A stretch of 64,000 nt of DNA from Takakia lepidozioides (GCA_030704615.1 CM060733.1:55366001-55430000), one strand, 5' to 3'; positions 1,858-35,115 are shown, numbered from the stretch's first letter. Numbers and translations: made by a program. Notes: a model not told the origin generated them from the letters alone.

Positions 1858-1859
1858 AT

Positions 1860-1870
1860 CGCCCCCCTAG
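1860..1870 (-). promoter_or_regulatory. Polypurine tract (PPT)
   Basis: Minus strand CTAGGGGGGCG immediately precedes the LTR; the same tract is in copy 2 (~9005-9015). Confidence 0.65.
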
Positions 1871-2117
1871 CTGGTGCTTAGGTCCCTCTAAGTCCAGGTA
1901 GCCACAAGATGTGATAGTGACCATAGCCTCACTAAGTCCTCCACCACTATCCCTACTACACTCAAACTCGATAGATCAAGAGGCCGGGTGCAAGAGTTGC
2001 CCCATCATTAGTCGCCGTCTTGCAACCTATGAACTTGAGCTTGGGATCTCATGTATTGACTCCTATGAGCTTGGCCTCCCATGTCTTGTTAGCTGCCTCC
2101 AGTCATGTCCACTGCCA

Positions 2118-3500
2118 CTATCCCAAGCAGTGTGGACACAACCAATCTCCGTCAGGAACCTTCTCAAGAGGTGGTGTCAAGCATCCCATATGCCAACCCC
2201 TTGAGCATCGATCACACACCAGCATGGTGGCTGCCCCTTTGGCAGACCCACAGAGCATGCACCTCAAACCTGCAGGTACCACTGCCAAGTTTGGGTCAAC
2301 TCTGCCATCGACATTGGGAAGGTGACATGGCGCACAATTACGCACATGGTCCTTCCAAGTCATGTCATCCCGACCCTCCAAGATCAGGACCCCTGAGGGC
2401 AACACCTCTCGAACCCTCAGAATAACACGCCCTGCAGTAACATCCAGAGTCGTAGGAGCAGTCTGCTGCAAATAAACATAGTCACCAAGGCTAAACCTCC
2501 GAACCCCAGGACGATATCCTCCACCACGTATAGTGGCATACCTCAACGTATCACGGTGCTGTGCAATGGCAAGGTTCTCAAAAGCCATGGGCATGACTTT
2601 CTTGAACAACTCTGCACGCTGATCACATGCACGTACCCACACGTCCGGATCGTCAAGGTTAAGGACTTGAGCAGTGTCCCTACGAATGGCTGCAGGCAAA
2701 TCCGGCTCTCGGCCAAAGAGAAGAAATATGGTGAGAAGGAGGCAAGTGATGCTTGTTTGCTGAACCTGTAGCCCATGGCTAACCAAGGAACCTGAAGATC
2801 CCAATCTCCTAGGTGTCCCTTCTGCAAGCCATACTTGCGCAAACCCCTCTTCACCGTCTGAACAACTCTCTCTGCTAAGCCATCGGCCTCAGGATGATCC
2901 CGAGAAGTGGTGCGGTGGTCTATCAAGGCTTTATCACACAAAGCCTGAAACTCCCCCAAGAACTCTCTCCCTTGGTCCGTGAGTACCTCAGCTGGAGCAC
3001 CAAATCGGCTAAGCACACGATCCAAGAATGCATACGCAGCCCCCTCACTAGCCTTGTCAGGCAATGGAACCAACTCAATCCACTTGGAGAAGTGCTCCAC
3101 CATCACCAACACATATCTGTGGTGGCGCATAGTCAGTGGCAACGGTCCTGCGAAGTCAAGACTCCATCTGTAGCCCAATCCCATGATAGGTAAAGGATGC
3201 AACTGTGGTGTAGGGGCGTTAAACGAAGCACGCACCCTGTCACACACCATGCACCTAGCCACAAACTGTTGCACCTCTGTATGCATACCACGCCACCAAT
3301 ACTGCCCCTGTAGTAAACTGTGAGTGCGTCGCACTCCAAAATGCCCCAACTCCTCATGGGCATGCCGCACTAACCGTGCACGCTGTGTGGGGTGAGGCAC
3401 AATCCTCACCCGACCACCCTCCCACACTCGAAGTAGGTGTATCCCCTCCCACTTGAACCTCTTGGCTCGTTGCAGGATCCGATCCCTCTCCCCTGGCAGT
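2118..3500 (-). pseudogene. DDE integrase with C-terminal PHD finger (copy 1)
   Basis: HAHEELGHFG..CMVC zinc finger; WSLDFAGP, VLTDQG and DGLAER catalytic core; CMLC..CDRC..WH..C..WLCPHC PHD. Frameshifted. Confidence 0.93.
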
Positions 3501-5107
3501 CACAATGGCTGTCGTGTCTCCCGTGCGGAGGTAGTCCAACACAGCCGAATCCTCATGTATATCTCTGGCACCACCTAGGTCATCACTAGCCTCAGGGTCC
3601 TCAGACACTCCGTCTACAGTCATCCATGTTGTAGGTCCAATCTGACCTCGCGATGCCAAGATACACAAAAATGCAGATGCGTGCCATCCCGGCACCATCT
3701 CCTCGTCCGTCTCACCATGCCACCGAGCTCCAGTGTCATCCTGCTGGCTCATGCATGGATTGCGACTCAATCCATCCGCATCCCGATTGACCAAACCCGG
3801 TCCATGCACAACTTGAAAGTCATACTCCTGGAGTATAAGTGCCCACCGTGTAAGCTTCCCCGTAAGCTTGTCTGACTCCATCAACCACTTGAGTGGCTGG
3901 TGATCCGTGACAAGGGTGAAAAGATTGCCGTATAGATAGCACCTGAAGTGTGCCACGGCCCACACTGCAGCTAAGCACTCTCCCTCATATGAGCTGTACT
4001 TAGCCTCTGCAGCGTTGTTCGAGCGGCTAGCGTAAGCCACTACGAACTCTCTTCCCTCATCATCCACCTATGTGAGCACCGCTCCAAGCCCCAGCATGCT
4101 CCAATCCGTATGCAGCTGAAAGGGACGCCCCCTGATAGGTCGTCTCAAGATAGGCGCCGAGGTCAACCTCGCCTTGAGCTCTTGAAAAGCTCGTTCCTGC
4201 TCATCTTCCCACTGCCACTCCTGGTCCACCTTGGTCGGCTTGGTTAGAGCCTTTGCAATGGTACTAAATCCCTTGACAAACCGTCTATAATAGTTTGCCA
4301 ACCCATGAAAGCTCGAACTCGGCTCAGATCCGTGGGGCGTGGAATTTGTGCAATGGCCTCTACCTTAGTCTGCTGTACCCCCAATCCTCCAGGATATATC
4401 ATGTGACCCAGATACTCAATCTGGTTGTGGAAAAACTTGCACTTCCCCGGATGCAACTTCAATCCGTGCGCTCTCAAGCGCTCCAATACCACCTGAAGGT
4501 GTCTCTTATGCTCCTCCATCGTAACACTAAAGATGATGATGTCATCTATGTAGCACCGAGCAAAGTCCACCCCTGCTAGAATCCTATCCATGACTCTCTG
4601 AAACTCTGCAGGAGCATTCTTAAGCCCAAATGGTAAGAACCGCCACTGATATAGGCAATCCTTGCCGTGCTCATTGATCCCCCAGAATGTCGTCTTCTGC
4701 TTGTCCGCCTCCTTGATTGGCAACTGGTGATATCCGGATCGTAAATCCAAAGTGCTAAAGGCCTTAGCATGCCCGATGGCATCAAAGATCTCCTCTGGTG
4801 TTGGCATGGCATACTTATCGGACTTGGTCTGACGATTTACAGGCCGGTAATCACCGCACATACGTCTCTCCGTCCAATTGCCATAGACATCCTTCTTGGC
4901 TGGCATCACTGTGGCTGAAGCATACTCTCCACCAGAGAGCTCCACCAAACCTGCCTCCCAGAGATCTTGAGTCCTCATCTGAATCAAAGACCTCTCCATG
5001 TCACTGTATCTATAGGGTCTCCGAAAGATTGGCGTGTCAGTGGCCAACTCAATACGGTCTCTTGACCCTTCAGTGCTCCCAAGTCCTTCAAACTGAAGGC
5101 AAAGCAA
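3354..5107 (-). pseudogene. Reverse transcriptase + RNase H (copy 1)
   Basis: LDLRSGYHQ, PFGLKNAP and YIDDII (RT); TDWS, YSSYEGE and TDHQPL (RNase H). Confidence 0.95.
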
Positions 5108-5250
5108 TTCCTGTAAGCCCTCAGGAACCGCCGTATACGTCGTCTCTCTCCTCCGGTGACAATGGGTCCAATGTCAGGCTCCCAATTGTCCTCCGTAACT
5201 ACAACCTTAAGTCCAGTGGGCTTAGAGGTAGAGGACGCGTCCCGTGGTTG

Positions 5251-6612
5251 CTATGCTGCAACCTCTTGAGCAGTACTCCCTACCTGCTCAGTCAATGACA
5301 AGGCATCATCCTGCCCCATCATCTCATCCTTGAGGACCTCCTCAACTCGAGAAGAATCCCCAACCTCATCCATCACAGCCGCCTTGGCTGCCAACTCCCT
5401 CTGAACCTCGAGCACCTCCCACGTATGCCATGGATGCATGCACCCCGTGGTCCTCATATGCTCGCCCCCACTCACTGCCTGTACCGTCTTGGTAGGCAGA
5501 GAGACCATTGAGGGAAGTGTATTCCGCACTCTGCGTTGCTCAGCTAGAGCCAAGCTGATAATCCAGGTCAAGCAATTGAGATCCATTGCTTGCCCCAACA
5601 CTTGACGACGTGATGCCTCAGAAAGAGACGACACCGCTGTGGTACCAGTGGTAAAACCCATTGCCCGCTCACGCTCGTCAGCATTAGGCTCCACTAACTG
5701 CTGCAACTGAGCATCCCACAGGAGGCCAGGTCCACTATTCCGGAAAGCATGCGATCCTGGGAAGCTGAGCAGTGTAGGTAATGCTGCTCGTGGTTGACCC
5801 ACCTTGTTGACCACTGCCAAAGGCGAACGGTCATCGTGTCTCACACGTTGAGACTGCCTCCCTGTGTCCAGAATGTTATCCACTGTGAGATATGCTGGCC
5901 GTTGCACCCCATCAAATGCACGCTTGAGCAGTGCGGGTGGCATCATGTTAGTCCACCATAGCCGTGGACGATGAGCCCGTGACCCCACTGTAGCTGCATC
6001 TAGCAACACTGCTGACCCAAGCCACGACCGGACTTGATGCACACTGGCCATCACCCTGGCCCGAGAATCGCCCATCAGTGGCACATTCTTCAAGATGTAT
6101 GCTGGAGATACAGCTTGATGAAGCTGCAAGTGGCGCAAAACCCGCACCATCTCCCAAAACAGACCCGACCTCGAGTCTCGCAATCCATTGCCATGCCCGG
6201 CTGATGAATGCCCTTGGCAGGGCCAACCTGCCACTACCAGATCAATGGAGCCAACCCGCTCCAAATCCTGCGCCCCCAGCAACAAAATGTCTGCTGGCAA
6301 GGCCTGCTGATATCCACAAATTGCAGACACCGACAACAACTCAGGGTACCGCTGCACCAACTGAGCAACATGGCGAAGTGAAACGCGTCGTGCAGTCTCA
6401 TCCCTCTCCACATACAGGTAACGCCGAACTCGTACACCTGCCTGTAACACAGCAGCCAATCCGGTGCTAATCCCGCCAAACAAGTCCAGAAGACAAATGC
6501 CTTCATCCGGAGACTGCCACACAATAGGTGTGGTGTCCAATGGAGACAATTGAGGTGGTCCTGGTGCAATCCCCACACTCTCCTCCTCTCCTGACGGTAC
6601 AAAAGCCTCCAC
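5251..6612 (-). pseudogene. C5 cytosine DNA methyltransferase domain in pol (copy 1; ENV changed to KNV)
   Basis: LDLFGG (I), GWPCQG (IV), YILKNV (VI), RPRLWWTN (VIII), ERERAMGF (IX), RQVLGQAM (X). Confidence 0.92.
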
Positions 6613-7451
6613 TTAGGCTTGTTGCACCCGTCGATCAGCATCCCGCTGCAAATCCTTGCTCGTGCCCCACAATGGAGTCTGAGCAACCATGGTAGGCAAC
6701 TCCGCCATACCATACATGTCATCCTGCTCTCCCGGAGGTGGTACATCCTCTGAATGAGCATTGCCCTCAAGCAACTCTCTAGGCCAACTCACTGCCGCTG
6801 TGAATGCTGCTAGTGTCGGCATCTTGCCTCGCTGGGCAACCGCAACTCCTCCTATGAACGTCACAGGGAGCTGCACACGCCGGCCCTCCCCTGACTCCCA
6901 TGCAGGCCTATAGGAAGCTGACTCCTCCCAAAATCCCAGGGTGAAGCCCATGGGGTACAACACTGCCCCACCAACCAGGACATCGTATGAGACTGCGTCT
7001 GTCACAATGGCCTTGGCTCGCATCACTGAGCCATCTGTAGGGTGATCCGGCCGTAGTCTGATAGCCAACTCATGCCGTGTCATGCCCCGAGCCTGCTCCG
7101 ATCCTCCCAGAGACGTCTGTATCTGGAAAGGACAAGGCTCCATATCCGCCTCCGTGAGGCCCAAGCCTGTAATAGCAGCTCTGCCCAGCATCAGTGGCTG
7201 AGCTCCCGAGTCCAACAAGACTCGCAGTGGCCGGTACCTCTTGCCTGCCGGTCCACTCAAACAGAGAATGTCATCCTGGTTGTCTAACATGACAACTCCA
7301 GGTGTCACCATGGCGCGCTCAATGGCTGGCCTAGCTGGCAGCTCCATCAACCTGGCAGCTGCAGCTTGCCATGGCGCCGCTGTGGCAGTCTTGACCCTCA
7401 AATCCGAGGATCCCTCCGGCACTACACCTCCCACTATCTCCGCAGAAGATG
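6613..7451 (-). pseudogene. Retropepsin aspartic protease region (copy 1)
   Basis: VLLDSGAQP active site and YDVLVG. Confidence 0.85.
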
Positions 7452-8311: not shown

Positions 8312-9002
8312 TGTCGTGCGCATACATATCATACACAACTACATCGCTGTCCAAAACCACACAACACATGTGCACACCACACACTAGTATACCACTAGTC
8401 CACCACTAGTCCAGCCACTAGTCCAACCACTAGGCTACAACTAGTCAGTCACTAGGCTGCCACTATGCTGCCCACTATGGCAGTCACTAGTCCACACAAT
8501 GATAAAGAAGAAGAATACAAGCACGAGCTCACAAATCTGAAGCATAAACTCATGCATATATAACCTCATCACTCAAATACAAGTCAAGCCAAGTGCACCC
8601 CACGCCATGGGGAATCCACACTACGGCGCCATAGCTAGGCGCAGTGAGGCTCAACTCGAGAAAGATGAGCCTCCCGCGCTTGCCGTGAAGATAACCACTC
8701 CAGGGCCTAAATCTGCCTTGACCCCTGGATTGACACTTGGGCCAATCCCAAATGTCAATATGTAAAAGCTAGCTATTTCCTAGCTAGTTTCACACTAGTG
8801 GTAAAATAACTTGACAGCTGTCGTGCGCATACATATCGCTACACAACTACATCGCTGTCCAAAACCACACACATGTGCACACCACACACTAGTATACCAC
8901 TAGTCCACCACTAGTCCACCACTAGTCCAACCACTAGGCTACAACTAGTCAGTCACTAGGCTGCCACTATGCTGCCCACTATGGCAGTCACTAGTCCACA
9001 CA
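8312..9002 (-). repeat. Y-X-GC-Y terminal repeat block, copy 2
   Basis: Y 8312-8498, X 8500-8816, GC, Y 8819-9002. Confidence 0.9.
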
Positions 9003-9243
9003 ATCGCCCCCCTAGCTGGTGCTTAGGTCCCTCTAAGTCCAGGTAGCCACAAGATGTGATAGTGACCATAGCCTCACTAAGTCCTCCACCACTATCCCTA
9101 CTACACTCAAACTCGATAGATCAAGAGGCCGGGTGCGTCGCCGTCTTGTAACCTGTGAACTTGAGCTTGGGATCTCATGTATTGACTCCTATGAGCTTGG
9201 CCTCCCATGTCTTGTTAGCTGCCTCCAGTCATGTCCACTGCCA

Positions 9244-10822
9244 CTATCCCAGCAGTGTGGACACAACCAATCTCCGTCAGGAACCTTCTCAAGAGGTGGT
9301 GTCAAGCATCCCATATGCCAACCCCTTGAGCATCGATCACACACCAGCATGGTGGCTGCCCCTTTGGCAGACCCACAGAGCATGCACCTCAAACCTGCAG
9401 GTACCACTGCCAAGTTTGGGTCAACTCTGCCATCGACATTGGGAAGGTGACATGGCGCACAATTACGCACATGGTCCTTCCAAGTCATCCATCCCGACCC
9501 TCCAAGATCAGGACCCCTGAGGGCAACACCTCTCGAACCCTCAGAATAACACGCCCTGCAGTAACATCCAGAGTCGTAGGAGCAGTCTGCTGCAAATAAA
9601 CATAGTCACCAGGGCTAAACCTCCGAACCCCAGGACGATATCCTCCACCACGTATAGTGGCATACCTCAACGTATCACGGTGTTGTGCAATGGCAAGGTT
9701 CTCAAAAGCCATGGGCATGACTTTCTTGAACAACTCTGCACGCTGATCACATGCACGTACCCACACGTCCGGATCGTCAAGGTTAAGGACTTGAGCAGTG
9801 TCCCTACGAATGGCTGCAGGCAAATCCGGCTCTCGGCCAAAGAGAAGGAAATATGGTGAGAAGGAGGCAAGTGATGCTTGTTTGCTGAACCTGTAGCCCA
9901 TGGCTAACCAAGGAACCTGAAGATCCCAATCTCCTAGGTGTCCCTTCTGCAAGCCATACTTGCGCAAACCCCTCTTCACCGTCTGAACAACTCTCTCTGC
10001 TAAGCCATCGGCCTCAGGATGATCCCGAGAAGTGGTGCGGTGGTCTATCAAGGCTTTATCACACAAAGCCTGAAACTCCCCCAAGAACTCTCTCCCTTGG
10101 TCCGTGAGTACCTCAGCTGGAGCACCAAATCGGCTAAGCACACGATCCAAGAATGCATACGCAGCCCCCTCACTAGCCTTGTCAGGCAATGGAACCAACT
10201 CAATCCACTTGGAGAAGTGCTCCACCATCACCAACACATATCTGTGGTGGCGCATAGTCAGTGGCAACGGTCCTGCGAAGTCAAGACTCCACCTGTAGCC
10301 CAATCCCATGATTGGTAAAGGATGCAACTGTGGTGTAGGGGCGTTGAATGAAGCACGCACCCTGTCACACACCATGCACCTAGCCACGAACTGTTGCACC
10401 TCTGTATGCATACCACGCCACCAATACTGCCCCTGCAGTAAACTGTGAGTGCGTCGCACTCCAAAATGCCCCAACTCCTCATGGGCATGCCGCACTAACC
10501 GTGCACGCTGTGTGGGGTGAGGCACAATCCTCACCCGACCATCCTCCCACACTCGAAGTAGGTGTATCCCCTCCCACTTGAACCTCTTGGCTCGTTGCAG
10601 GATCCGATCCCTCTCCCTGGCAGTCACAGTGGCTGCCGTGTCTCCCGTGCGGAGGTAGTCCAACACAGCCGAATCCTCATGTATATCTCTGGCACCACCT
10701 GGCTCATCACTAGCCTCAGGGTCCTCAGACACTCCGTCTACAGTCATCCCTGTTGTAGGTCCAACCTGACCTCCCGATGCCAAGATACACAAAAATGCAG
10801 ATGCGTGCCATCTCGGCACCAT
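9244..10822 (-). pseudogene. Integrase + PHD (copy 2)
   Basis: Same motifs as copy 1; 445-aa open frame covers the integrase core. Confidence 0.92.
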
Positions 10823-12211
10823 CTCCTCGTCCGTCTCACCATGCCACGAGCTCCAGTGTCATCCTGCTGGCTCATGCATGGATTGCGACTCAATCCATCC
10901 GCATCCCGATTGACCAAACCCGGTCGATGCACAACCTGAAAGTCATACTCCTGGAGTATGAGTGCCCACCGTGCAAGCTCCCCGTAAGCTTGTCTGACTC
11001 CATCAACCACTTGAGTGGCTGGTGATCCGTGACAAGGGTGAAAAGATTGCCGTATAGATAGCACCTGAAGTGTGCCACGGCCCCACACAGCTAAGCACTC
11101 TCCCTTATATGAGCTGTACTTAGCCTCTGCAGCGTTGTTCGAGCGGCTAGCATAAGCCACTACAAACTCTCTTCCCTCATCATCCACCTGTGTGAGCACT
11201 GCTCCAAGCCCCAGCATGCTCCAATCCGTATGCAGCTGAAAGGGACCCCCCTGATAGGTCGTCTCAGGATAGGCGCCGAGGTCAACCTCGCCTTGAGCTC
11301 TTGAAAAGCTCGTTCCTGCTCATCTTCCCACTGCCACTCCTGGTCCACCTTGGTCAGCTTGGTTAGAGCCTTTGCAATGGTACTAAATCCCTTGACAAAC
11401 CGTCTATAATAGTTTGTCAACCCCATGAAAGCTCAAACTCGGCTCACATCCGTGGGGCGTGGAATTTGTGCAATGGCCTCTACCTTAGTCTGCTGTACCC
11501 CCAATCCTCCAGGATATATCATGTGACCCAGATACTCAATCTGGTTGTGGAAAAACTTGCACTTCCCCGGATGCAACTTCAATCCGTGCGCTCTCAAGCG
11601 CTCCAATACCACCTGAAGGTGTCTCTCATGCTCCTCCATCGTAACACTAAAGATGATGATGTCATCTATGTAGCACCGAGCAAAGTCCACCCCTGCTAGA
11701 ATCCTATCCATGACTCTCTGAAACTCTGCAGGAGCATTCTTAAGCCCAAATGGTAAGAACCGCCACTGATATAGGCAATCCTTGCCGTGCTCATTGATCC
11801 CCCAGAATGTCGTCTTCTGCTTGTCCGCCTCCTTGATTGGCAACTGGTGATATCCGGATCGTAAATCCAAAGTGCTAAAGCCTTAGCATGCCCGATGGCA
11901 TCAAAGATCTCCTCTGGTGTTGGCATGGCATACTTATCGGACTTGGTCTGACGATTTACAGGCCGGTAATCACCGCACATACGTCTCTCCGTCCAATTGC
12001 CATAGACATCCTTCTTGGCTGGCATCACTGTGGCTGAAGCATACTCTTCACCAGAGAGCTCCACCAAACCTGCCTCCCAGAGATCTTGAGTCCTCATCTG
12101 AATCAAAGACCTCTCCATGTCACTGTATCTATAGGGTCTCCGAAAGATTGGCGTGTCAGTGGCCAACTCAATACGGATCTCTTGACCCTTCAGTGCTCCC
12201 AAGTCCTTCAA
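10744..12211 (-). pseudogene. RT + RNase H (copy 2)
   Basis: YIDDII and neighbouring motifs; 1-bp indels. Confidence 0.93.
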
Positions 12212-12370
12212 ACTGAAGGCAAAGCAATTCCTGTAAGCCCTCAGGAACCGCCGTATACGTCGTCTCTCTCCTCCGGTGACAATGGGTCCAATGTCAGGCT
12301 CCCAATTGTCCTCCGTAACTGCAACCTTAAGTCCAGTGGGCTTAGAGGTAGAGGACGCGTCCAGTGGTTG

Positions 12371-13864
12371 CTATGTTGCAACCTCTTGAGCAGTACTCCC
12401 TGCCTGCTCAGTCAATGACAAGGCCTCATCCTGCCCCATCATCTCATCCTTGAGGACCTCCTCAACCCGAGAAGAATCCCCAACCTCATCCATCACAGCC
12501 GCCTTGGCTGCCAACTCCCTCTGAACCTCGAGCACCTCCCACGTGTGCCATGGATGCATGCACCCCGTGGTCCTCACATGCTCGCCCCCACTCACTGCCT
12601 GTACCGTCTCGGTAGGCAGAGAGACCATCAAGGGAAGTGTACTCCGCACTCTGCGTTGCTCAGCTAGAGCCAAGCTGATAATCCAGGTCAAGCAATTGAG
12701 ATCCATTGCTTGCCCCAACACTTGACGACGTGATGCCTCAGAAAGAGACGACACCGCCGTGGTACCAGTGGTAAAACCCATTGCCCGCTCACGCTCGTCA
12801 GCATTAGGCTCCACTAATTGCTGCAACTGAGCATCCCACAGGAGGCCAGGTCCACTATCCTGGAAAACATGCGATCCTGGGAAGCTGAGCAGTGTAGGTA
12901 ATGCTGCTCGTGGTTGACCCACCTTGTTGACCACTGCCAAAGGCGAACGGTCATCGTGTCTCACACGCTGAGACTGCCTCCCTGTGTCCAGAATGCTATC
13001 CACTGTGAGATGTGCTGGCCGCTGCACCCCATCAAATGCACGCTTGAGCAGTGCGGGTGGCATCAAGTTAGTCCACCATAGCCGTGGACGATGAGCCCGT
13101 GACCCCACTGTAGCTGCATCTAGCAACACTGCTGACCCAAGCCACGACCGGACTTGATGCACACTGGCCATCACCCTGGCCCGAGAATCGCCCATCAGTG
13201 GCACATTCTCCAAGATGTATGCTGGAGATACAGCTTGATGAAGCTGCAAGTGGCGCAAAACCCGCACCATCTCCCAAAACAGACCCGACCTCGAGTCTCG
13301 CAATCCATTGCCATGCCCGGCTGATGAATGCCCTTGGCAGGGCCAACCTGCCACTACCAGATCAATGGAGCCAACCCGCTCCAAATCCTGCGCCCCCAGC
13401 AACGAAATGTCTGCTGGCAAGGCCTGCTGATATCCACGAATTGCAGACACTGACAACAACTCAGGGTACCGCTGCACCAATTGAGCAACATGGCGAAGTG
13501 AAACGCGTCGTGCAGTCTCATCCCTCTCCACATACAGGTAACGCCGAACTCGTACACCTGCCTGTAACACAGCAGCCAATCCGGTGCTGATCCCGCCAAA
13601 CAAGTCCAGAAGACAAATGCCTTCATCCGGATACTGCCACACAATAGGTGTGGTGTCCAATGGAGACAACTGAGGTGGTCCTGGTGCAATCCCCGCACTC
13701 TCCTCCTCTCCTGACGGTACAAAAGCCTCCACCCAGGCTTGTTGCACCCGTCGATCAGCATCCCGCTGCAAATCCTTGCTCGTGCCCCACAATGGAGTCT
13801 GAGCAACCATGGTAGGCAACTCCGCCATACCATACATGTCATCCTGCTCTCCCGGAGGTGGCAC
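12371..13864 (-). CDS. C5 cytosine DNA methyltransferase domain in pol (copy 2; catalytic motifs intact)
   Basis: 497-aa open frame with LDLFGG, GWPCQG, YILENV, RPRLWWTN, ERERAMGF and RQVLGQAM. Confidence 0.93.
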   Translation of the reverse strand: MPPPGEQDDMYGMAELPTMVAQTPLWGTSKDLQRDADRRVQQAWVEAFVPSGEEESAGIAPGPPQLSPLDTTPIVWQYPDEGICLLDLFGGISTGLAAVLQAGVRVRRYLYVERDETARRVSLRHVAQLVQRYPELLSVSAIRGYQQALPADISLLGAQDLERVGSIDLVVAGWPCQGHSSAGHGNGLRDSRSGLFWEMVRVLRHLQLHQAVSPAYILENVPLMGDSRARVMASVHQVRSWLGSAVLLDAATVGSRAHRPRLWWTNLMPPALLKRAFDGVQRPAHLTVDSILDTGRQSQRVRHDDRSPLAVVNKVGQPRAALPTLLSFPGSHVFQDSGPGLLWDAQLQQLVEPNADERERAMGFTTGTTAVSSLSEASRRQVLGQAMDLNCLTWIISLALAEQRRVRSTLPLMVSLPTETVQAVSGGEHVRTTGCMHPWHTWEVLEVQRELAAKAAVMDEVGDSSRVEEVLKDEMMGQDEALSLTEQAGSTAQEVAT

Positions 13865-13869
13865 ATCCT

Positions 13870-16523
13870 CTGAATGAGCTTGCCCTCAAGCAACTCTCTA
13901 GGCCACTCACTGCCGCTGTGAATGCTGCTAGTGTCGGCATCTTGCCTCGCTGGGCAACCGCAACTCTCCTATGAACGTCACAGGGAGCTGCACACGCCGG
14001 CCCTCCCCTGACTGCCATGCAGCCTATAGGAAGCTGACTCCTCCCAAAAATCCCAGGGTGAAGCCCATGGGGTACAACACTGCCCCACCAACCAGGACAT
14101 CGTATGAGACTGCGTCTGTCACAATGGCCTTGGCTCGCATCACTGAGCCATCTGTACGGTGATCCGGCCGTAGTCTGATAGCCAACTCACGCCGTGTCAT
14201 GCCCCGAGCCTGCTCCGATCCTCCCAGAGACGTCTGTATCTGGAAAGGACAAGGCTCTATATCCGCCTCCGTGAGGCCCAAGCCTGCAATAGCAGCTCTG
14301 CCCAGCATCAATGGCTGAGCTCCCGAGTCCAACAAGACCCGCAGTGGCCGGTACCTCTTGCCTGCCGGTCCACTCAAACAGAAAATGCCATCCTGGTTGT
14401 CTAACATGACAACTCCAGGTGTCACCATGGCGCAGCTCCATCAACCTGGCAGCTGCAGCTTGCCATGGCGCCGCCGTGGCAGTCTTGACCCTCAAATCCG
14501 AGGATCCCTCCGCACTACACCTCCCACTATCTCCGCAGAAGATGAATAACCTCCCCACTCTCACAGAGTGTAGTTGCCAGCCTAACACCTCAGCTGGTTT
14601 TACCCCCGGCGTCGCAATCATGGTAGCCGAGAACAATGGAGCCTGGCACACAGATGTGGCCGCTCCTAGCAGCACACTAGCTGCCGTAGCCTTGGCAACA
14701 CTAGGTAGTGGTGCTACCCGTGTAGCTCTCCCCAATGGCATAGTAACCTCCGCCTCGGTAACCGTCGGGCGAGAACTAGGTGCCATGGATGGCGTCGACA
14801 CTGTCTCTGCCAATGTGAATGACTGAGGAAGCCTAGCCTGACGGCTTGCCTCCCACGCTGTGGATCCAACTCCACCTCTGCACCTCGTGGCTCAGGAACT
14901 CGTGCTGCTCCTCGAGTCACGGCTGCAGCAGACTCCACCTGCACTAGTGGTAGTGCTGCTCCACACATGAATCCCATGCCTCCCATATCTCCTCCCTCAG
15001 GAGCAGGAGGTGGACCATCCGGCCTTAGAGCCGGTACCACCTGAGCTGTAGCCATGGCAGCGAGCCTCTGCTCTAGCTGCTGAAGCCGGTTGGCCCCTTG
15101 GTCAACACCCTGACCTCCGCGTCCTTGGCCACGTTGAGCTTGCCCTTGGCCTGCACCTCGTGGCTGGCCACCTCGTCCTCTCTGGCTGCTCCACCTCGCC
15201 CCCGGCCACCATTGTTCCCTTGGAACTGGCCTGGGCGCAACTCAGGATGCAAACCATAACACTGGGCCTCTCCATGCCCGTGCTTGCCACAATGCCCACA
15301 CTGCAACTGTGCAGGCTGTGCATGTGCCGACCCTTTGCCTCCCTCTGGGCAATCCTTCTTGACATGGGGTCCTCCACATGTCCAGCACACCACATCTGCC
15401 CGTTGTTGCCAGCAAATGAAGGGAGAGACCCCTGCATCTGAGGTCCTCTCTGCCCTTCCCTGAGCTTCACCTGAGCCCCCTTGTTGCCTTGAGCACGTTG
15501 AGGTAGTGGTTGGCTAGGAGCACCACTACCCCGTGGTGTCTCCTTAGCAAATCCCACCATGACCACTCGTTCCTCCACCATGTTGAGCTCTATCCGCTCT
15601 GCCAGCAAAAACACATTTGCTAAGGTGGGTTGGGCTGCTTGTAGGAGAGTTGCATCCCGCACCCTTCTCCTCAGCTCCTTGTCCAATATCCCATACCAGA
15701 ATTGGACTGCCTGAGCTTCCGTAACCCTTGGGTTACATTTATCAAGCGCCTCATGCGAGTGAAAGCCTCCCTCAAGCTCTCGGTCGGCTTCCGTTGGAAC
15801 TCTTGCAGCTCCGCAACTTCTCTGTCTCACCCTTGTAGTTCCCTCTCAACTCTTCGAAGAACTCCACAACAGGGTTGAGGCAGTGCACGGGTGCTAGTGC
15901 TGGTGCGGTAGTGGCTTGGGTGGACGTCGTAGCTACTGTACCACCAGTTCCACTAGTCCCACTGCTACTTGCTGAAGCTGCCGGTGCAGCGGCAGGTGTA
16001 GCCACTGCCCTCGTGGCTCTAGTGCCCCTAGTGATGGAGACATAGTCGGGTGACCAGTACATCCTCCACTCCTCGATCTCAACCTCATGCCCCCGCCTGA
16101 ACTCATGGTAATCATCCATAGGCGGCCCCTCAAGGTGCTGAAACAGCCCCTTCCATGCCATGAAAGGCGTAAAATAGTTGTGGATTGCGCATTTGCTGCA
16201 AATCACACCAACTATCAAACTCTTGGATAAAATCATCCAACTCGATGGTGCCCACCGCCCCAGAGTACCTTCGTGGCCCTTGGTAGCTCCATACATCTCC
16301 TCCATTGTGTCCCACAACAATGGCAAGAAACAACTTGCACCGCCGTATGAGTCCTCCTGATTCACAATCCGAATCAGAACCTTCCGTAGAAGACACAGGA
16401 GGTGAAGGTGGCCTAAACCACACACCTCGTCTCATGTACCCACTAGTATCGCTAGTGCTCGAACCGGCACTGTCCTTAGCAACTAGTGGCACCTCCGTGT
16501 TGACACTCAACCGGTCATGAACA
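13870..16523 (-). pseudogene. gag (two CCHC knuckles) + protease (copy 2)
   Basis: CWTCGGPHVKKDC, CGHCGKHGHGEAQC, ELDDFIQEFDSW and VLLDSGAQP; many indels. Confidence 0.82.
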
Positions 16524-17794
16524 TGTCCCTAACCCCCCTCCACAAGGTAACCGGGTAGAGAACTGTTGCGGCTTATGGTTTGGAATACTAAGTTCCTAAC
16601 ATAGCCTACACCTGTACCTGCATCCACCGCAAGCACTCCTATGGTTGGCTGGTCATTACCTCCAACCTCACCACAGAGAGACAATGATGGTCTGGCTGGT
16701 CATCACCCCAATCTCACCATCGACAACATGCTCTAGGACTGGCCGGTGATCAAATCCGGACCAATCACCTATAAAAACAAGCGCCTACACAAAACTAGCA
16801 TGGCGCACAGTCAAGCATGCATGTATGGAGGGGATCCAAAACACAAGAAATCAGGAGCGACAACTCCCCCACACCAAAAACAACTCACCGGTGTTTGCTC
16901 CTGCAATGACATACCCCAGCCAAACCCGGACTGACTCTTGCCTCCACCTACGGAAAGGTCTTGGCCTAATGAGAGGGTGGAAGAGAAGCTAAAGCAATGC
17001 CTAACCCCAACATTGCCCTCATCCCAACACTCTTCCTCTCCTCTCTTCCCTCACTTGCATGACCATGGGAATATCATGAAGATACTCCTCAAACCGCCCT
17101 CCACGAGCTTCAAATTTGGCCTTCAAGACCATGCCAGTCCTTAGGCAGTCCACCAGTGCCTCCACGAGTCAGCACAGGCCGTCCACAGGTCAACACGGGC
17201 CCACAGACCAGCACAGGCCCACACAGCTCACTGGTCACATCCGTCACAGTCCCACTGGCCACTGGGCACAGCCTGTCACAGCCCCTCATAGCCCGTCACA
17301 GCTCGCCACAGCCCTGTCACATCCCGTCACACGCCCGTCCTCATGCTGCTATTCATGAGCCATGAGCCATGAGCGGCATGAGCCATGAGCAGAGTCGTAA
17401 GTGTGGAAAAAAACATGAGCAGCACTATTTTCCATGAGTGTCCGCGGGAATAGGGTTTAGGGTGCCACGGTCATAGGGGGAGAAGGACCTCCCGATGAAG
17501 GAGGTTCGGCAATGTTATTTAGAATTATATATTGAAAGGCAATGTTTCGCGAATGGTAGGGTGGTACTGCTCTGTACAATGGGGGCCCATTTCAGCCTAC
17601 CAGCCATTTGCAAAATCACCCACACTCCCAATCCAAACGAAATGAGCAATGACGCATTCTCGGAACGATGGACACAGAATAGAATAAAAAGAGGGCACAA
17701 TGAGGTTTTTATTGATCCACATGAATTGCATTTGAAGCACGTCTACTGTGCTGATTGTGCCATCAAATTGAGCCCTGTGCCTACTGAATACAAG

Positions 17795-19424: not shown

Positions 19425-19665
19425 AGCCCGGGCTTAGTTTTGTCTGCAGTTGGTAAATGTGAGACATCGTGTCCGATCATAAACCCATCGTACCTCACTT
19501 CTGTATGATTGTGTTTCATTGTGTTGAATAACTGTCGGAATTGGCCCACTGTTTACAATTTGATGTCTCATTTCTACAATGTGTCTGTCCGGATGAATAT
19601 AGCAGAGTAACCGGTATGTGAGTCATGTGTCAAGAATATACCAGAGTAACGCCATGTCGGACATT

Positions 19666-20378
19666 GAAATGCGGCACCGCATGTCGGCATCGAAATGCGG
19701 CGCCGCATTTCCATGTCCGAAATTTCCATGTGGGACAAGAAAATGCGGTGCATCATTTCCGTCCAGGTACACGAAATACCAACACGGGTCTATAAATTGT
19801 TTGGCATTGCAAATGCGGCGACGCATTTCCAGCTTGGCAATGGAAACTTCTTTTTGGACAAGGGAATGCGGTGCCGCATTTCCGTCCAACACTTCGAAAA
19901 GTGTGACATTTCCGACCAGCGCGATGGAATGCGTTACCGCATTTCCGAGAGAGGGTCTGCAAATGGACAAATTGCGATGTCCGTTCTGGAAATGCGGCGC
20001 CGCATTTCCATGTCCGTCATCGACTTTTTTTTACAATGGAATGCGGTGCCAATTTTTGCTGATGGGCCTGCAGTTCGAACAACGACCATCCCCATATGGA
20101 AATGCGGCACCGCATTTCAATCCCGCCATCTTCGACCTCCTTGTTCGACCTCTGTAAGCGTGGTGGCATCCATGCAATGAGCGGGAGAGGCCAAAACTGG
20201 CGTGTGGACAAAGGAAATTTTGGAAATGCGGCACCGCATTTCCAATTCAGATTACTTTTTACTATGCCAACATTGAAATGGAAAATTTAGTCCCTCCCCT
20301 GTTTTGGAAATGCGGTGCCGCATTCCAAAAGAGGTTCTTAGAGTTGCCAAAATTTTGGAAATGCGGTGCCCCATTTCT
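19666..20378. repeat. Palindrome cluster 1 (~12 x GGAAATGCGGYRCCGCATTTCC)
   Basis: Read directly; mostly non-repeated spacers; lies downstream of gene B. Confidence 0.9.
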
Positions 20379-20514: not shown

Positions 20515-23500
20515 TTAATCTTGAAAATCATCCGAATCCTCATCCTGTTCTAGACTGTCCTGCTCCTCCTCCACCCCCTCAGTGCCTCTCTCATCTCCAG
20601 CGGACTGCTCGTTGGCCAGGCTTTCGAAAATCCCATCTTCCCCTTGCGGAACTGTCCATCTCACCTCCGTTGGGTCGTCTTCCTCCCTGTCTGCGTCGCT
20701 CTCATCCGCTGAATCACATATGTACTTTCGTACCCGTCTACCTGTCTGAGCTGCTGCCAACTCTTTCCTTATCCTTCTGTCCTCCCTAGCCCTCTCCAAA
20801 ATCTGCTCTACTTTACTGGGATTCTCACTTCTTCTAATCGCTGTATTTGCGAGTTTAGCTGCATAACTAGGAAGGGAGTAGTCCCTCACCGGGCTCGTCA
20901 TGAAGTCGGCCCTCGCAAAGAACGGGACATTCTTCCTGGCAGGAAGTGTAGGCCCTACATGTTTCGACCCGGACCCTGCAATCCTGCACATGACAATCAT
21001 CAACGAGACTAATGAGAACCACAGTCGGGAAATTCGTTTGACATAAATGACCCAGAAGGCTTTGCAAACTTACAATGTTTGCACTCACTCGTATCCGGGT
21101 TCTCCTCCGCATCAATGTCCACTGTGTCTTCCTCGGACTCCGACGAATCCGAGGAGACTTCCGCTCTGTCGGGAGCCTTCACATTCCGTTGCAGCCCTCC
21201 AGATGGGATCCCCACACGGATGAATCTCCTCGTAGGCAAAGAGGTGCCGGTCGGAAAACCGCCCAGCCCACATTGAGGCACCTGTTACAATGCCATCCAC
21301 ACATTACCACATGGCGCTTCAGATGTTGCGAACTACATCCTAACGAGAATTTGCAGAACAGCAGAGATCAAGATTCTGCATACCTGTCCCACAGATGAGG
21401 TCGAGCACTGTGCCCTCCACGTCTGTGCATGTCTCCATAATTGTCTGAATGAAGGCAGGGCTCCGAGTCCGTGAGTACCGCAGGGGTTCCGTTGAGTGAG
21501 GCTATGAGGGAGAGTTCCTTGGGAACGTTGTTGAACAGAACGTCGTAATCGAGTGGGTCGCAGTTCGGGTCAACCTTTCCTCCCTCCTTCCGGAAAGCAA
21601 AGGTGGAGTTCTCCTTCACAAAGCAGTATGCATCGAACTGCTTCGTCTGCATACACAGGGGGAAAACGATTAGAAACCGAATGCGGCACCGCATTTGAAA
21701 AACACCCAAGCAAATGAATGGACGAGTGCCAGTGTCGTAATCACCTTCTTCCCTTCCGACCGAAGGCCCAGTGTGTTGATGCACGTCCACTTCTTTTTCA
21801 GAATCGGGACGGCGCTCTTGCGGGTCCACTTCGCAATTCCTGTCTGAGTGTTTTTTCCTCTGCTCGCCAGGACAACCACACAGCCTCTGTCGTCCAACAC
21901 CATGCGGGCAAGCCCGAATCCTTTCTTCCAAAAGTCCTCCGAGTACCTGTTCCAAGATGGCAAAGCTTGCAGTCCTTCCACAGGCTCTCCGTCCGGAATA
22001 TCCAAGATGATCATATCGCAAGACCACTCGGTGGCATTTCCGCCCCTCCTACAATCCTTGTCTGCACACACCCTCTCAAAGAACGAGACCATATTCTGAA
22101 ATCCTGGGGTGTCGGAAGGCTCTTCGGCAGTCGCCTTCTTCAGTGCTCTGCCCTTCAGACCCTCCATGGTCTTCATGTATGCCAACTTGGCTGCCCGTCC
22201 ATCCAAAGCCGCCACTCTCATTTACACACTGGACTACTGTTTCGGGAGCCTTTCGGCCTCTTCATTTCCACCGGCTCGAAAGGGTGCCCCCCTGGGGGGT
22301 TGAAGAGTGCCTTCTTTGCCGAGCCAGTTCTCGTGCCTCTCGTGACAACGGTGGGCACAGGGGAGGCAGCCTGCGTTTGGGGGGGTGGGCTGGTTGCAAA
22401 GTCTCCATCGGAGTCCTCTTCCTCACCCTCTTCCTGAACAGGCTGTTTCTGCTTCTTCGTTTTGGCGGGTGTCACAACAGCTGCTCCTTGCTGGCGAGTC
22501 CTCTTCTTCGACCCCTTCTGTTGGGCCTGCACAGCTGCATCCACCGTCTTTTGTGCCATCTCAGCTGCCTTTCTGGATTCTTCCAGAGCAGCAGATTCCT
22601 TTGCCGACTTGGGCCCAGCAGGGACACGTCTTTCCTTTCTCTTCTCTTCTGCCAAGGCGTGCAGATCTTTCTCAGACTCGTCAACAATACCGCCAGACAT
22701 GTCCAGGTACCACGGGCATCCAACGAGATGCGCGGGATGCCATTGTTTCTGCATCTCGGGTGTGTAGACACAGCTTGGGCCCGCCACGGTCCAAGCCATG
22801 AAGAACGGGGGCTCTTGAGCCAGGGCCCCTGTCTGAAGGAGCACGTATTTCATATACCTGCAAGGCAGTCAGCATGCGTGAGCAAAAGTTGAGACCAACC
22901 TACTGGCAGAGTGCCACCGAAAACATAAAATGCGAATGCGGTGCCGCATTTCCGAGACAAACCTCGTAACCAGGCTTCGCATACAAGGGCAGCTGTGCTT
23001 CACCTGTAAACAATTCGCATTGCAGCTTTCCCCGCTCCCTCCTGATGTGTAAACTCCACGCTCCTTCTTGCTGTCTGTAGCTCTCTGGCGAAAAGGTTGT
23101 CCTTGTACGCACATCTGAAACGTGTCACGTAGTCTTCCAATGTCTGTGTTCCATCCCATTTGACGTACAAGCCGAACGAATTTGTGTGCATTACGACTTG
23201 CTCCTTCGCATTCGACATTACCTGCGATTCCCAAATGCATTGTCACGTAGCAGTTCAGGGAATTCATGTCAGAAAAGCAAATCTGGGGAAGTACCTTGAA
23301 TTACCTGGAACCACCAAGTCATACGGTTGAGCCACATCCACTGCAGGGTCGGAAACTTCAGTGGAAAAGACCACATTGTCCTTATGCTCTCGGATGCATT
23401 CCAGATCGACAGCCACCGTGTCTGCCATTTCCGATCCAATGTCAGGAGCTGGAAGAGAGTGGCTATTGCTAGGAAGGAACTTCAGTGCATTGAAACCTCA

Positions 23501-25716
23501 CCTTCTTTCGCCTCCACACATGCCGTTGAGAGGTGATGCAGTTTCTCCAATTGCATGGTCGGCTGCATGGCCCGAGAATAGTGTTTTGCAATCTCGGGGA
23601 TGAAGTCCTTTCCAAGTGCCGGATCTGCAATTGCCACCAGCTTCACAAGCTTTGACTTGTATTTGGTTCTGGACTTGACACCGGCTTCCTTCAAGTGCTC
23701 AGTCAATGACTGCAACGTTTTGACCTGCCCCTCACTTTCCATGAAGAAGCGTTTGGCATGGGCCAAATCCAGCTTGATGTTTGACTGCCAACAAAAACAT
23801 GCAGAAGCGTTACATTCGATTCATGTGGAAACATTACTGAAAATTGGGGAAGGATGAGCAGAGGGAAATTGGAGACGACTTACTTCGTATATCACCTCCA
23901 CCATTCCATCCATAGTGAGACGATACCATGTCCGGTCTGTTTTTGCAACGGCTTTCTGAATGAGCTCGGGCTCCAGCATTTCCGCAAACATCTGCGGATC
24001 AGTGAGACCAGTTTTCCTCACCCTGTACAGCATATGTGCCATGTGGGTATGCACGTACGCATTCTCAGTGACCCTGCAAGGCACACTCTCCAGTTCAGTA
24101 CACGGAAGCACGGAAACAAACCAGAATGGAAACCGAAATGCGGCACCGCATTTCGAACGTGCTAGGGAGGGTATGAGTATCTTACGAGTTGAGGTCCGCC
24201 ATGGCATTCTTGAGCAGGGAGGAGTCTGCCGCCTTCACCTTGAGGATGACACACTCCACCATGTAATGCCAGCCAATGTGCTTGGCATGGTTCTGCTTGA
24301 TGTACTCCCACCAGGCGAGAAGTCGGTGATTCCCGTCCCACACAAAGACATTTTACCCGACATATGGCCGAAGTCGGGATCACCCTTCAGCGTCGCCTCG
24401 AATTCGTGGTTGCGAGTGTGCCAGTGGGTATCCCACGTTGACAATTCATCGGCAGTGGGTCCACGAGTTTCGCCGTCCTCATTCTCAATGGAAACGTAAA
24501 ACGCTGCCGATCCCAGACGGTACCCTTCTCGAAATGCGAACTTGAGCTTATCCACATCTCCGGGAAGGGCCTGCCTGACGATGGGAAGGGAGACCATGCG
24601 ACAGAGTGGGATTCGAAGAGTCCGCTGGAATACCCTGCTGCCCAGAACTCTGCCAATGCTACTGTGTGTCTCCTCCAACATTTTATCCGCTGCACTTTTG
24701 AAATCCTCCGGAGACATGTCTGTAGGTGCGTAGTGGCTGAGCAGCTGGAGCATCCTCAACTGGAGCTGCACTCTGGGGCCTGTGCGGGCAATTCTGCCAT
24801 TGCAGAGGCCTCCTCCGGGCCTGCTTGCTCATCGGTGGTGAGGTCTTGCTGCGAACGTTCAGCGGCAGCACCCTCCTCCGGTACCAAATCGAGATCAACG
24901 GTCGATCCCATTGCCTTCGCGCTGCAGCAGAGTCGGCCCCAACATCTGCAGGCGGGAAATCCTCCAGGAACTGAGCTTCAGCTCGTGGAAGCGGTTTTGC
25001 GGAGATTGTTCGCCCGTCGCCCTGATTGCCTTCTGCTTCCTCATCCTTGCAGGTGAAGGTGTCTGCTGCAATTGAATCTGTCTTCTACCCTGCTGCTTCA
25101 TTCGCGTTGGGGGGGGTGAATCGGCCTGAGCCGGTTCAGAAGCCAGTAGAGGGACGGGCTGCTTCTTCTTCGACTTTGCTGGAGAAGGGCCCGACCCCTG
25201 CTGGCGATTCTCCATGACCGAAGAACGCGAGTCGATCTCTGGGACTTTGAACTTGCCCTTCGAAGACGCGTCTTTGAATCGCAGAGGGCTAGGCCCGGCA
25301 GGAATACCCGCGCTCGGGGATCGGGTGGGTGTACGTGCTGCAGCTAGCTCCTCGGACTCTTCCTGCGGCTCTTCGGATTCCTGCGATCCCTCCAGCACGT
25401 CCACCTTTCCTGTTAGGCATGCAAACATGTTCTGCATTCAAGTCTCCTAGCATTCAGTCTAAGAATTACAGAAGCAAAATGGGGGGTTCGGTGCTCGATC
25501 AGCTGCGCGCAGCCCGATCGCATGGAGCTCTCACTGGTGGCTGGGTTGCCTGAGTGGCCTGCTGCTCGGAGATGGCAATCTCCTCCTGTAGACGCATCTG
25601 CTTCCTCCCCTTCGGCATTGGCCTACGTCCGAAGTATAATTTCCGGAGCTTGCGACGAGGTCTCCTGTCTGGTGCACGAACTCCCCCCTCTCAGGTTCGA
25701 GCATAAGAAGAACAGA
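20515..25716 (-). pseudogene. ParB/Srx + N6/N4 MTase-like gene B (multi-exon)
   Basis: VWDGNHRLLAW (~24310-24345, after a frameshift), CDMIILDIPDG (~22000), RSPAFIQTIMETCTDVEGTVLDLICGT|GASMWA..RHLFAYE. Intron positions shared with gene A. Start approximate. Confidence 0.75.
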
Positions 25717-27681: not shown

Positions 27682-28095
27682 GTCCACCAGCAATCGAAAG
27701 AATCACTCGGGACGGGAAATCTGGAACCTGAATGGGTTGCATTGTTCCGAAACAACACAATTGCGGCCAGTCTTGATGAGCACAACTTGGTTGTCTGACC
27801 GTTTTAACAGCAGTCCTGGCACTTGTCAGTGCGAACGTTCCTGTCTGCACCGAGAATACTGCTGGATCCACCCTCAGGAGAAACTGTCAGGAGATGTTAT
27901 TTCGTCGCCGAATCGGCCATCATTGTCATACTACTGGCTATGGAATCAAACCTCCCACCTTCATGCATGTAGCTTGAAACAATACTTCCACTTCAATGTG
28001 CGACTTCCAATCGTCGATGGACTCCGCAGATCCACTTAGATGGTGCCTGTGAGCCTTGGTCTGTCGCTATACTGAACCTCGCACTTGCCAACTCC

Positions 28096-32996: not shown

Positions 32997-33239
32997 GTCC
33001 CTAACCCCCTCTCCACAAGGTAACCGGGTAGAGAACCTGTTGCGGCTTATGGTTTGGAATACTAAGTTCCTAACATAGCCTACACCTGAACTTGCATGAC
33101 CATGGAATATCATGAAGATACTCCTCAAACCGCCCTCCACGAGCTTCAAAATTCGGCCTTCCAGACCACATGTCAGTCCTTAGTCCACCAGTGCCTCCAC
33201 GAGTCAGCATAGGCCATCCACAGGTCAACACGGGCCACC

Positions 33240-34789: not shown

Positions 34790-35115
34790 TGGGCTGAAGG
34801 CATGCTCCACACATGCCCCACTCTCACCATAAGAGAATCAGCTCCTTTGCTTCATTTCTTGCACCCACAAACCTGATAATACAAGCTTCAGCAGGCTGAA
34901 AGCATGCTCTACATGCCCTACAGGGAAACCAGCCCCTTCCTTCCTTTCTTGCACTCCCACACCTAAAAGTGCAAGCCTTCACGAGGCTGAGAGCATGCTC
35001 CACACATACATTGCCCTCACATAAGGGAAGTCAGCCCTTCCCTCTTCCTTGCTTGCCCTCCAAGCTGGATGAATACATTCTCCACACATGCAACCTCTTC
35101 ACACAGATATCAGCC
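34790..35115. repeat. Degenerate ~100-bp tandem repeats in the Gypsy leader
   Basis: Recurring GCTGAA.GCATGCTC..CACATG...CAGCCC units (3-4 copies). Confidence 0.55.

Follow-up and report, generated by a model that had tools for sequence, protein, structure and literature searches.

Among described retrotransposons, the nearest counterpart of the element reported here is KnitGypsy-Dnmt3 of Klebsormidium nitens, a Gypsy element with a DNA methyltransferase (DNMT) domain of DNMT3-like type and DIRS-like repeats (de Mendoza et al. 2018, PMC5890265). SymbioDIRS-Dnmt3, which methylates CG de novo, SymbioLINE-Dnmt and the EpiLTRs also bear a C5 methyltransferase; as described in the available parts of their reports, they have a DIRS or LINE backbone, or a DNMT4-related domain with DAM and a chromodomain, and no DDE integrase with split repeats (PMC5890265; bioRxiv 10.64898/2026.05.21.726589). 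According to PMC6338049, land plants such as tracheophytes lack methyltransferase-carrying transposons. Here we analyse 64,000 nucleotides of Takakia lepidozioides (GCA_030704615.1 CM060733.1:55366001-55430000; the window), which hold two copies, alpha and beta, of a Gypsy-type family with a DNMT3-like domain. The family shares with KnitGypsy-Dnmt3 the Gypsy domains, an unrearranged, intronless DNMT3-like domain, split A-coding-B-A-B repeats, purifying selection on the DNMT and a streptophyte host. It differs in having a land-plant host and a DNMT that closes the Gag–protease (Gag–PR) frame before a stop codon, whereas the DNMT of KnitGypsy-Dnmt3 lies in the Pol open reading frame. The available text describes KnitGypsy-Dnmt3 without mention of a primer site, a palindrome, a target duplication, a PHD finger or an integration model, and the two are compared by description only.

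Translation and Pfam searches gave the same minus-strand order in both copies: gag with a zinc knuckle, protease, DNMT3-like domain, reverse transcriptase (RT), RNase H, integrase and PHD finger. With gag, protease, RT, RNase H and integrase in this order and an integrase of the DDE type, both are Gypsy-type elements. In beta (8312-17339, minus strand, delimited by self-comparison), gag with its CCHC zinc knuckle lies at 15100-16431 (from translation and homology to the N terminus of Marchantia Mp4g09160), the aspartic protease (LLDSGA) at 13990-14400 (from translation, with Pfam Asp_protease matched in the intact relative L056), the DNMT at 12650-13639, RT with RNase H at 10744-12370 (translation and Pfam) and the integrase (H2C2, rve) with its C-terminal PHD finger at 9250-10560 (translation, Pfam and PDB search); gag, protease and RT–RNase H are frameshifted as assembled. 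The position of the DNMT between protease and RT in both copies, as given by the initial annotation, is thereby confirmed. Pfam scans of the window frames and of L056 found no chromodomain after the integrase, where the PHD finger stands instead, and no tyrosine recombinase in the window frames or in either L056 frame. The nearest solved PHD fingers are those of CHD4, KDM5B, PHF12, KDM5A and ATXR5, which mostly read unmodified H3 tails.

We next asked what the methyltransferase frame encodes. The frame at 12371-13885 (minus strand) comprises 504 amino acids from stop to stop, and the HMM search proposed in the initial annotation bears out its claim of a C5 DNA methyltransferase domain, with PF00145 matching at E 6.8e-13 (49 bits, cut-off 22) in beta and at E 7.7e-11 in the second copy (5251-6612, minus strand). 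Every motif is intact in the translation of beta, which reads I LDLFGG, II YVERD, IV WPCQG, VI ILENV, VIII RAHRPRLWW, IX ERERAMGF and X QVLGQAMD, in the normal, unrearranged I–X order and without introns. The full motif set claimed for both copies thus stands for beta only: in alpha, motif VI ENV has become KNV (6088-6090), with loss of the Glu, and a premature stop lies upstream at 6613-6615. A PDB sequence search with the 330-residue beta core (45 sequences at E <=0.001) placed DNMT3A first (E 9e-12) and DNMT3B at 1.5e-8, ahead of DRM (4e-6) and M.HhaI (3e-4). An AlphaFold model of the core, built from 26 aligned sequences, reached a mean predicted local distance difference test score (pLDDT) of 78.6 and a predicted template modelling score (pTM) of 0.83, with residues 102-108 and 226-263 poorly predicted, and its closest structure was again DNMT3A (E 1.2e-16). 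By sequence and predicted fold the domain is DNMT3-like and closest to DNMT3A/B, as had been proposed from its motifs.

The family extends well beyond the window. Searches with the DNMT recovered relatives from Marchantia polymorpha, M. paleacea, Riccia, Calypogeia and Sphagnum, whose identities span 41-76% and in most cases 60-76% (best 120 of 187 rows of one search plus all 75 rows of another, with about 8,000 candidates scored in each), and M. polymorpha alone supplied 18/75 rows in one search. No row among the matches listed was named as a vascular plant, most rows carrying no species name, and no Klebsormidium-named protein was among the matches returned. One Marchantia cluster has 18 members, 5 of the 15 listed being Gag–PR–DNMT proteins of 1278-1281 amino acids; P0351, P0352, P0353 and P0356 are Mp_Vg gene models, Marchantia copies located on the male V chromosome. 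Closterium proteins, which are distant relatives compared with those at 65-76% identity in Marchantia, Calypogeia, Riccia and Sphagnum, have the same PR–DNMT–RT order and form a separate group in the DNMT tree. The window copies fall just outside a liverwort plus Sphagnum group (98 and 95 in Shimodaira–Hasegawa-like approximate likelihood ratio tests, SH-aLRT) in DNMT trees that are quick searches with a midpoint root and no host DNMT3 outgroup; the RT tree contains family members only. This pattern fits long vertical inheritance, and transfer could also produce it. We conclude from these comparisons that the elements belong to a multi-copy Gypsy family of seed-free land plants, widespread in bryophytes. 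A profile search returned 474 clusters at E <=1e-30, and in the best 150 of these the DNMT lies between protease and RT in 15, between RNase H and integrase in 82 and alone in 53. The RNase H–DNMT–integrase order marks a clade of its own, which includes a Chromochloris-labelled protein; its members (P0160, P0168, P0172 and the 82 of the best 150 rows) are Gypsy polyproteins with a PHD finger, many with ECQ in place of PCQ in motif IV, and no description of this clade was found in the literature searched. Among the viral contigs, 1 of 20 candidates gave a distant 36% match without retroelement domains.

Could the DNMT be a passenger, a captured host gene fragment or an assembly artefact with no role? 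Both window copies are broken as assembled, and the motif VI Glu of alpha is lost. Against this, the DNMT occupies the same place in 80/80 metagenome loci where flanks allow (the best 80 of 179; counts over these loci are not independent, because several represent one insertion sampled in separate data sets), and the named liverwort, moss and Closterium proteins exclude contamination from a single source. The domain is covered by contigs from four public runs, gap-free in three; run X1 alone places 93,927 contigs on beta with all 30 bins covered, and none of the 15 joints listed skips the DNMT, so the family is abundant, a contig count giving no copy number. Between lineages the ratio of nonsynonymous to synonymous rates (dN/dS) is non-neutral, at 0.14 (L056-L058) and 0.12 (L056-L062) for the DNMT and 0.04 for RT (L056-L062), and the window and L002 differ at proportions of 0.17 of nonsynonymous (pN) and 0.74 of synonymous sites (pS) over 328 codons. 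The catalytic Cys is kept in 79/80 loci, the motif VI Glu in 75/80 and the Asn in 79/80. We therefore regard a passenger as scarcely credible and the DNMT as under purifying selection between lineages. The view that it is a heritable part of the element holds, and the named relatives that carry it speak against a secondary insertion limited to the two window copies.

The DNMT does not, however, lie inside pol or appear to be processed from Pol, as the initial annotation had it. In beta, an in-frame TAG followed by CAA CCA (12365-12373, minus strand; a predicted readthrough site) separates DNMT from RT, and alpha has the same TAG CAA CCA after its DNMT (5245-5253); in both, RT continues in frame. 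Of the 62 metagenome loci in which the start of RT is visible, 54 show an in-frame TAR-CAR-YY at the matching site; four more keep the stop with an adjacent C>T and four differ, the stop being kept in 58/62. A distant clade reads TAG CAG TTA or TAG CAA TCA, and the intact L056 has 1369 codons of Gag–PR–DNMT, TAG CAG TTA and 1047 codons of RT–RNase H–integrase–PHD, all in one frame. The stop is absent in Closterium and three other proteins, where the frame runs through. CAR-YYA after a stop is the readthrough context of tobacco mosaic virus (TMV) type: TMV-type leaky stops and the gag–pol readthrough sites of SIRE and murine leukaemia virus (MLV) have UAG or UAA, then CAR-YY(A), with a continuous downstream frame. 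In SIRE and MLV the stop follows gag, whereas here it follows protease and DNMT, in a similar context. Because the DNMT closes the Gag–PR frame at a conserved stop, RT and integrase are likely made by stop-codon readthrough, and the DNMT, which forms the C-terminal end of the Gag–PR–DNMT frame, is likely produced at the Gag level.

The ends of the element are equally unusual. Its repeats consist of two segments, R1 and R2, and alpha reads R1-body-R2-GC-R1-R2 in the sense direction. On the minus strand, the 5' R1 of alpha lies at 35803-36131 (the element start, first base missing as assembled), and its 3' repeats (1152-1858) are R2 at 1670-1858, GC, R1 at 1341-1667 and R2 at 1152-1340, with a palindrome at 1664-1673. 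The corresponding minus-strand parts of beta are the internal R2 (8819-9003), the 3' R1 (8500-8816) and the terminal R2 (8312-8499, ending ...GACA). In the rows listed, contigs with unrelated flanks depart from the element at 8816 (16, 18 and 1 in three runs) and at 8819 (33 and 27); elements therefore start TGTC and end GACA. These free ends rule out a 3-bp duplication with ends CTGTCG...TTGAC, which we had also considered. The inner join GACA-GC-TGTC is a 10-bp palindrome of both element ends, GACAGCTGTC (8813-8822 in beta), in which the TG...CA ends lie two bases apart; it is a predicted integrase cut site. The palindrome is preserved in the Sphagnum-type loci L005, L016 and L080 and in the distant L062, and has central transitions in L051 and L056. 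A polypurine tract, AGGGGGGCGA (9004-9015 in beta, minus strand), lies upstream of the inner R2 and is conserved in relatives, and a primer site lies downstream of the 5' R1. Since these two sites bound R2-GC-R1, this unit is the long terminal repeat (LTR) that reverse transcription would make. The identical LTR expected at each end of a Ty3/Gypsy element is not found; the ends are R1 and R2.

We then compared insertions across loci. The 27 loci with a visible 3' end represent 23 distinct insertions, of which 6 are long, R2-R1(-R2), 16 end at R2 and 1 is unclear. Target duplications of 4 bp are exact in 3/3 long forms; among seven short forms, four are exact, two have one mismatch and in one the duplication is absent. 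The R1-to-R2 join is flush in four cases (alpha, beta, L016 and L080), has a primer-site remnant in L067/L068 and has a polypurine remnant with filler in L051. R1-R2 joins thus behave as end-joined 2-LTR circle junctions would. The short R1-body-R2 appears to match a 1-LTR circle, and the long R1-body-R2-GC-R1-R2 a 2-LTR circle, both opened at the palindrome, and integration from DNA circles is therefore likely. Primer site and leader stand directly after R2-R1 at L056:8600-9317, either because a second copy follows in tandem or because the assembly has collapsed a circle or repeat.

Circles have precedents in other systems. In PAT, Ngaro and VIPER elements, the circle is the presumed integration substrate. 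Human immunodeficiency virus type 1 (HIV-1) integrase reportedly cleaves palindromic 2-LTR junctions. Foamy-virus integrase cleaves palindromic circle junctions (PMC1180852). In these viruses integrase opens the circle at a CA-nn-TG palindrome and so produces processed ends, as proposed for the window family; there, however, the palindrome is the LTR–LTR junction and the route a minor one, whereas here it lies within the LTR and all observed insertions end there. PAT, Ngaro and VIPER share the split direct repeats A1-B1-A2-B2 (PMC4157794), whereas the window family has a DDE integrase, a protease, TG...CA ends, 4-bp duplications and a polypurine tract, and no tyrosine recombinase.

This likeness suggests another route, in which template switches copy the whole A-body-B-A-B into one circle, the R1-R2 join is inherited and a DDE integrase acts in place of the tyrosine recombinase. 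Such a route would explain the matching layout (PMC4157794; PMC5890265, Fig. 4c legend), the flush and identical joins of alpha and beta, and the lack of a mirror form: since a 2-LTR circle carries the palindrome twice, some insertions should have R2-GC ahead of the 5' R1, yet this layout was seen at 0/20 distinct 5' ends (22 loci, leaving out L038, whose start is unclear). We nevertheless judge it unlikely, as the primer site after R1 and the polypurine tract before R2 delimit an ordinary LTR, primer-site or polypurine remnants in 2/6 joins point to fresh end joining, and the 4-bp duplications and TG...CA ends do not fit. The missing mirror form might be explained if the left LTR were the first to become double-stranded, or if the other site were shielded by methylation.

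The short form could also come from recombination, after insertion, between the two R2 copies of a long form, in place of a 1-LTR circle. These copies, separated by about 340 bp, are almost identical, the target duplications would survive, and most old decayed copies have the short form whereas the two young copies of the window have the long one; by the same process, however, R1-R1 recombination should more often yield solo R1-R2 units, and there were none in 81 loci, which had been picked by their DNMT. We consider this origin of the short form possible, and less probable than a 1-LTR circle.

Priming also appears to dispense with tRNA. In the window, 13 nucleotides from the last R1 base onward (the primer-binding site of alpha, 35791-35803, minus strand) are complementary to R1 positions 148-160, the predicted self-primer in the 5' R1 (35972-35984, minus strand). 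Pairings of 17 nucleotides in L070, L073 and L080 and of 16 in L056, each in a different sequence, exceed the maxima of 8-10 nucleotides in 500 shuffles, and the paired sites covary across three lineages. In L056 and L070 a TATA box stands 26-27 nucleotides upstream, and if the RNA begins at R1 position 140-150, its predicted fold pairs the 5' end with the primer site. We dropped tRNA priming, as no TGG-type site follows R1. Together these data make priming on the element's own RNA likely. This arrangement resembles the self-priming of Tf1. Tf1/Sushi and plant Tcn1 Gypsy elements self-prime (PMC6317226), and as in the window family their primer site is complementary to the predicted 5' end of the element's RNA; their LTRs are ordinary and terminal and they carry a chromodomain, whereas the window family has a PHD finger, a DNMT and permuted LTRs.

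From these features we propose a life cycle. Transcription would quite probably start in mid-R1, with the RNA 5' end pairing to the site after R1. It is highly probable that most ribosomes would stop after Gag–PR–DNMT and few read through; with readthrough in the minority, particles would hold many DNMTs per RT. Ordinary LTR-type reverse transcription would then, with similarly high probability, yield cDNA with the LTR R2-GC-R1, delimited by polypurine tract and primer site. Probably, 1-LTR and end-joined 2-LTR circles would be cut at the palindrome and inserted; a 2-bp staggered cut after CA would give normal processed CA-3' ends. The products would be R1-body-R2 or R1-body-R2-GC-R1-R2, only the latter having the 3' R1 required for strand transfer. 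We regard it as evenly balanced whether the PHD finger would guide integrase to nucleosomes with unmodified H3 tails. Just short of that, the DNMT may methylate the cDNA or circle, which would make new copies resemble host DNA; it is improbable that such methylation could also keep the element's integrase from acting on the palindrome that the insertion retains.

On the role of the DNMT, the chief alternative is that its targets, reached in trans, are host chromatin or other elements, or that it binds nucleic acid but does not methylate it; production at the Gag level would then serve that role, and the element's own cDNA would stay unmarked. A pre-stop position implies far more DNMT than RT, the Klebsormidium domain showed no activity in yeast (PMC5890265), ECQ variants occur in the wider clade, and the domain has moved between the protease–RT and RNase H–integrase sites (15 versus 82 of the best 150 clusters). 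The catalytic Cys, the Glu and FxGxG are nevertheless the best-kept residues of the clade, the element is intact in hosts of differing methylomes, and fusion to Gag would favour packaging. We find action in trans doubtful, and the element's own cDNA the likeliest target.

The model as a whole, with a Gag-level DNMT, readthrough, self-priming, circle integration through an intra-LTR palindrome and cDNA methylation, seems to us somewhat favoured by these data. Several observations weigh against it, besides the absent mirror form and the recombination open to the short form. The strict CARYYA occurs in only 5/62 loci and both window copies, 49 having CAR-YY-C/T. No clear TATA stands at the corresponding position in the window, and an exact test of 20 Sphagnum-type 5' repeats, from decayed copies, found a primer match of at least 10 nucleotides in 9, one of 6-7 nucleotides in 2, and none of at least 6 in the other 9. 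KnitGypsy-Dnmt3 gave no DNA methylation in yeast, a result its authors call inconclusive (PMC5890265), and motif IV reads ECQ in place of PCQ in 71/117 matches of the wider clade. Among 75 close decayed copies (pairs with dS <0.05 dropped) the median dN/dS of the DNMT is 0.57, versus 0.42 for RT, 0.46 for integrase and 0.59 for protease, and the motif VIII arginines are kept in only 48/80 and 57/80 loci, with mostly CpG-type losses. Nor is the element enriched in CG, as might be expected of a DNMT target, the observed/expected ratio being 0.44-0.62 in the element and 0.50 in the host gene SCARECROW (SCR).

We hold a broader interpretation more tentatively: that these elements are an unrecognised LTR lineage of green plants, of pre-land-plant origin, with its integrase attachment site mid-LTR and obligatory circles, a Gag-level DNMT3 packaged to methylate them, possible shielding of the palindrome resembling restriction–modification, and intact-looking Gag–PR–DNMT genes in Marchantia. 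Readthrough, self-priming and the permuted-LTR anatomy have good support from sequence, integration from circles is the reading we favour, and the family is of the KnitGypsy-Dnmt3 kind. The words Marchantia and Sphagnum have 0 occurrences in the available text parts and supplements of PMC5890265, and the available parts of PMC12344493 and bioRxiv 10.64898/2026.05.21.726589 speak of 'streptophytes' only; the supplementary trees of these two reports might include land-plant copies. The family goes unmentioned in the available parts of PMC10952607, PMC9516144, PMC11982613, PMC12859917 and bioRxiv 2022.10.24.513474, and in the literature searched, which did not extend to subscription journals or Repbase, we met no account of the family from land plants and none of an LTR with an internal attachment site. 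Two other named groups were set apart: Troyka, with CG...CG ends, a 3-bp duplication and animal hosts, mismatches in ends, duplication length and host range (PMC12440569), and Phygy/Selgy differ by description only, the available text of PMC6317226 mentioning no PHD, methyltransferase or Marchantia.

With several full-length Gag–PR–DNMT models, the family in Marchantia makes the role of retrotransposon DNMTs testable, a question so far raised on algae without genetics. Such gene models inflate DNMT counts and may affect the methylome. The permuted-LTR anatomy accounts for the 'DIRS-like repeats on a Gypsy'; it also implies that circles, textbook dead ends, serve an LTR element for integration. 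Tools that seek paired terminal LTRs would miss or misannotate split-repeat elements.

Alpha spans 36131 to 1152 and is interrupted at 31023/7451 by a 23.6-kb insert. It is a single insertion, because CCTC lies on both flanks (4-bp target-site duplications at 1148-1151 and 36132-36135, plus strand) and the interrupted gene resumes on the far side, judged against a paralogue at 23000-24730. Alpha is young, since just 1 substitution over 318 positions separates its R1 copies. Its 5' half (31023-35790, minus strand, by self-comparison) holds the leader, with a tandem array of ~51-bp units (33240-34260), and gag; its 3' half (1859-7451, minus strand) holds protease, DNMT (5530-6519), the TAG, RT, RNase H, integrase, PHD finger (2121-2300) and polypurine tract. 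Beta lies within the 23.6-kb insert and lacks the 5' R1 and most of the 5' leader, ending at 17339 within an array of the same ~51-bp type. Over 6.2 kb, alpha and beta are separated by 91 substitutions and 24 indel events. Contigs from public runs disagree with beta at no fewer than 12 single-base indels, so that many of its frameshifts are assembly errors or private changes. The leader of beta also contains 437 bp (16615-17053) not found in alpha, and one X1 contig has the joined form. The insert itself (7452-31022) was accompanied by the loss of 7 bp of alpha and shows no target duplication or terminal inverted repeat; besides beta it contains arrays of ~53-bp palindromic units (19600-20300 and 26100-27700) and transposase-like frames (27973-30575) with no Pfam match.

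The host is an embryophyte, as the initial annotation had concluded. SCR, an intronless land-plant marker (53952-56405, plus strand; GRAS E 4e-125), groups with seed-free plant sequences in a tree of 24 rows (23 chosen among 120 listed matches), outside the moss group and far from Calypogeia, its position beside mosses having only 93/86 support. Its GRAS domain is 75.8-76.6% identical to those of Ceratodon, Selaginella, Calypogeia and Ginkgo alike, and the ESM Atlas places SCR no more narrowly than in Streptophyta. The second host marker put forward, a class III HD-Zip gene (C3HDZ), stood only in part: at 41630-42555 (minus strand) there are two exon-like remnants without the homeodomain start, which we take to be class III HD-Zip from their motifs, Pfam giving bZIP_1 only (E 0.003). 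They are likely a captured fragment or pseudogene.

The gene interrupted by alpha (1-1092 and 36190-37330, plus strand) contains introns, alpha lying in one, and a VWDGNHR motif, and has no Pfam match; its paralogue in the insert (23000-24730, minus strand) is 65% identical. We presume it to be ParB/Srx-like, and it is probably a mobile-element gene. At least six repeats of ~95 bp form an array at 37350-38100. Related frames at 39100-39900 (plus strand) and 21368-22048 (minus strand), without Pfam matches, include one with LDLTCGTG, which resembles an S-adenosylmethionine (SAM)-binding loop; they are possibly another mobile-element methyltransferase. Exons at 47300-50400 (minus strand) resemble those of a Plavaka-like transposase. 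Finally, a host U1A/U2B''-like RRM gene (57884-60380, minus strand) and a peptide deformylase-like gene (61000-62950, plus strand), both with short introns, lie towards the end of the window.

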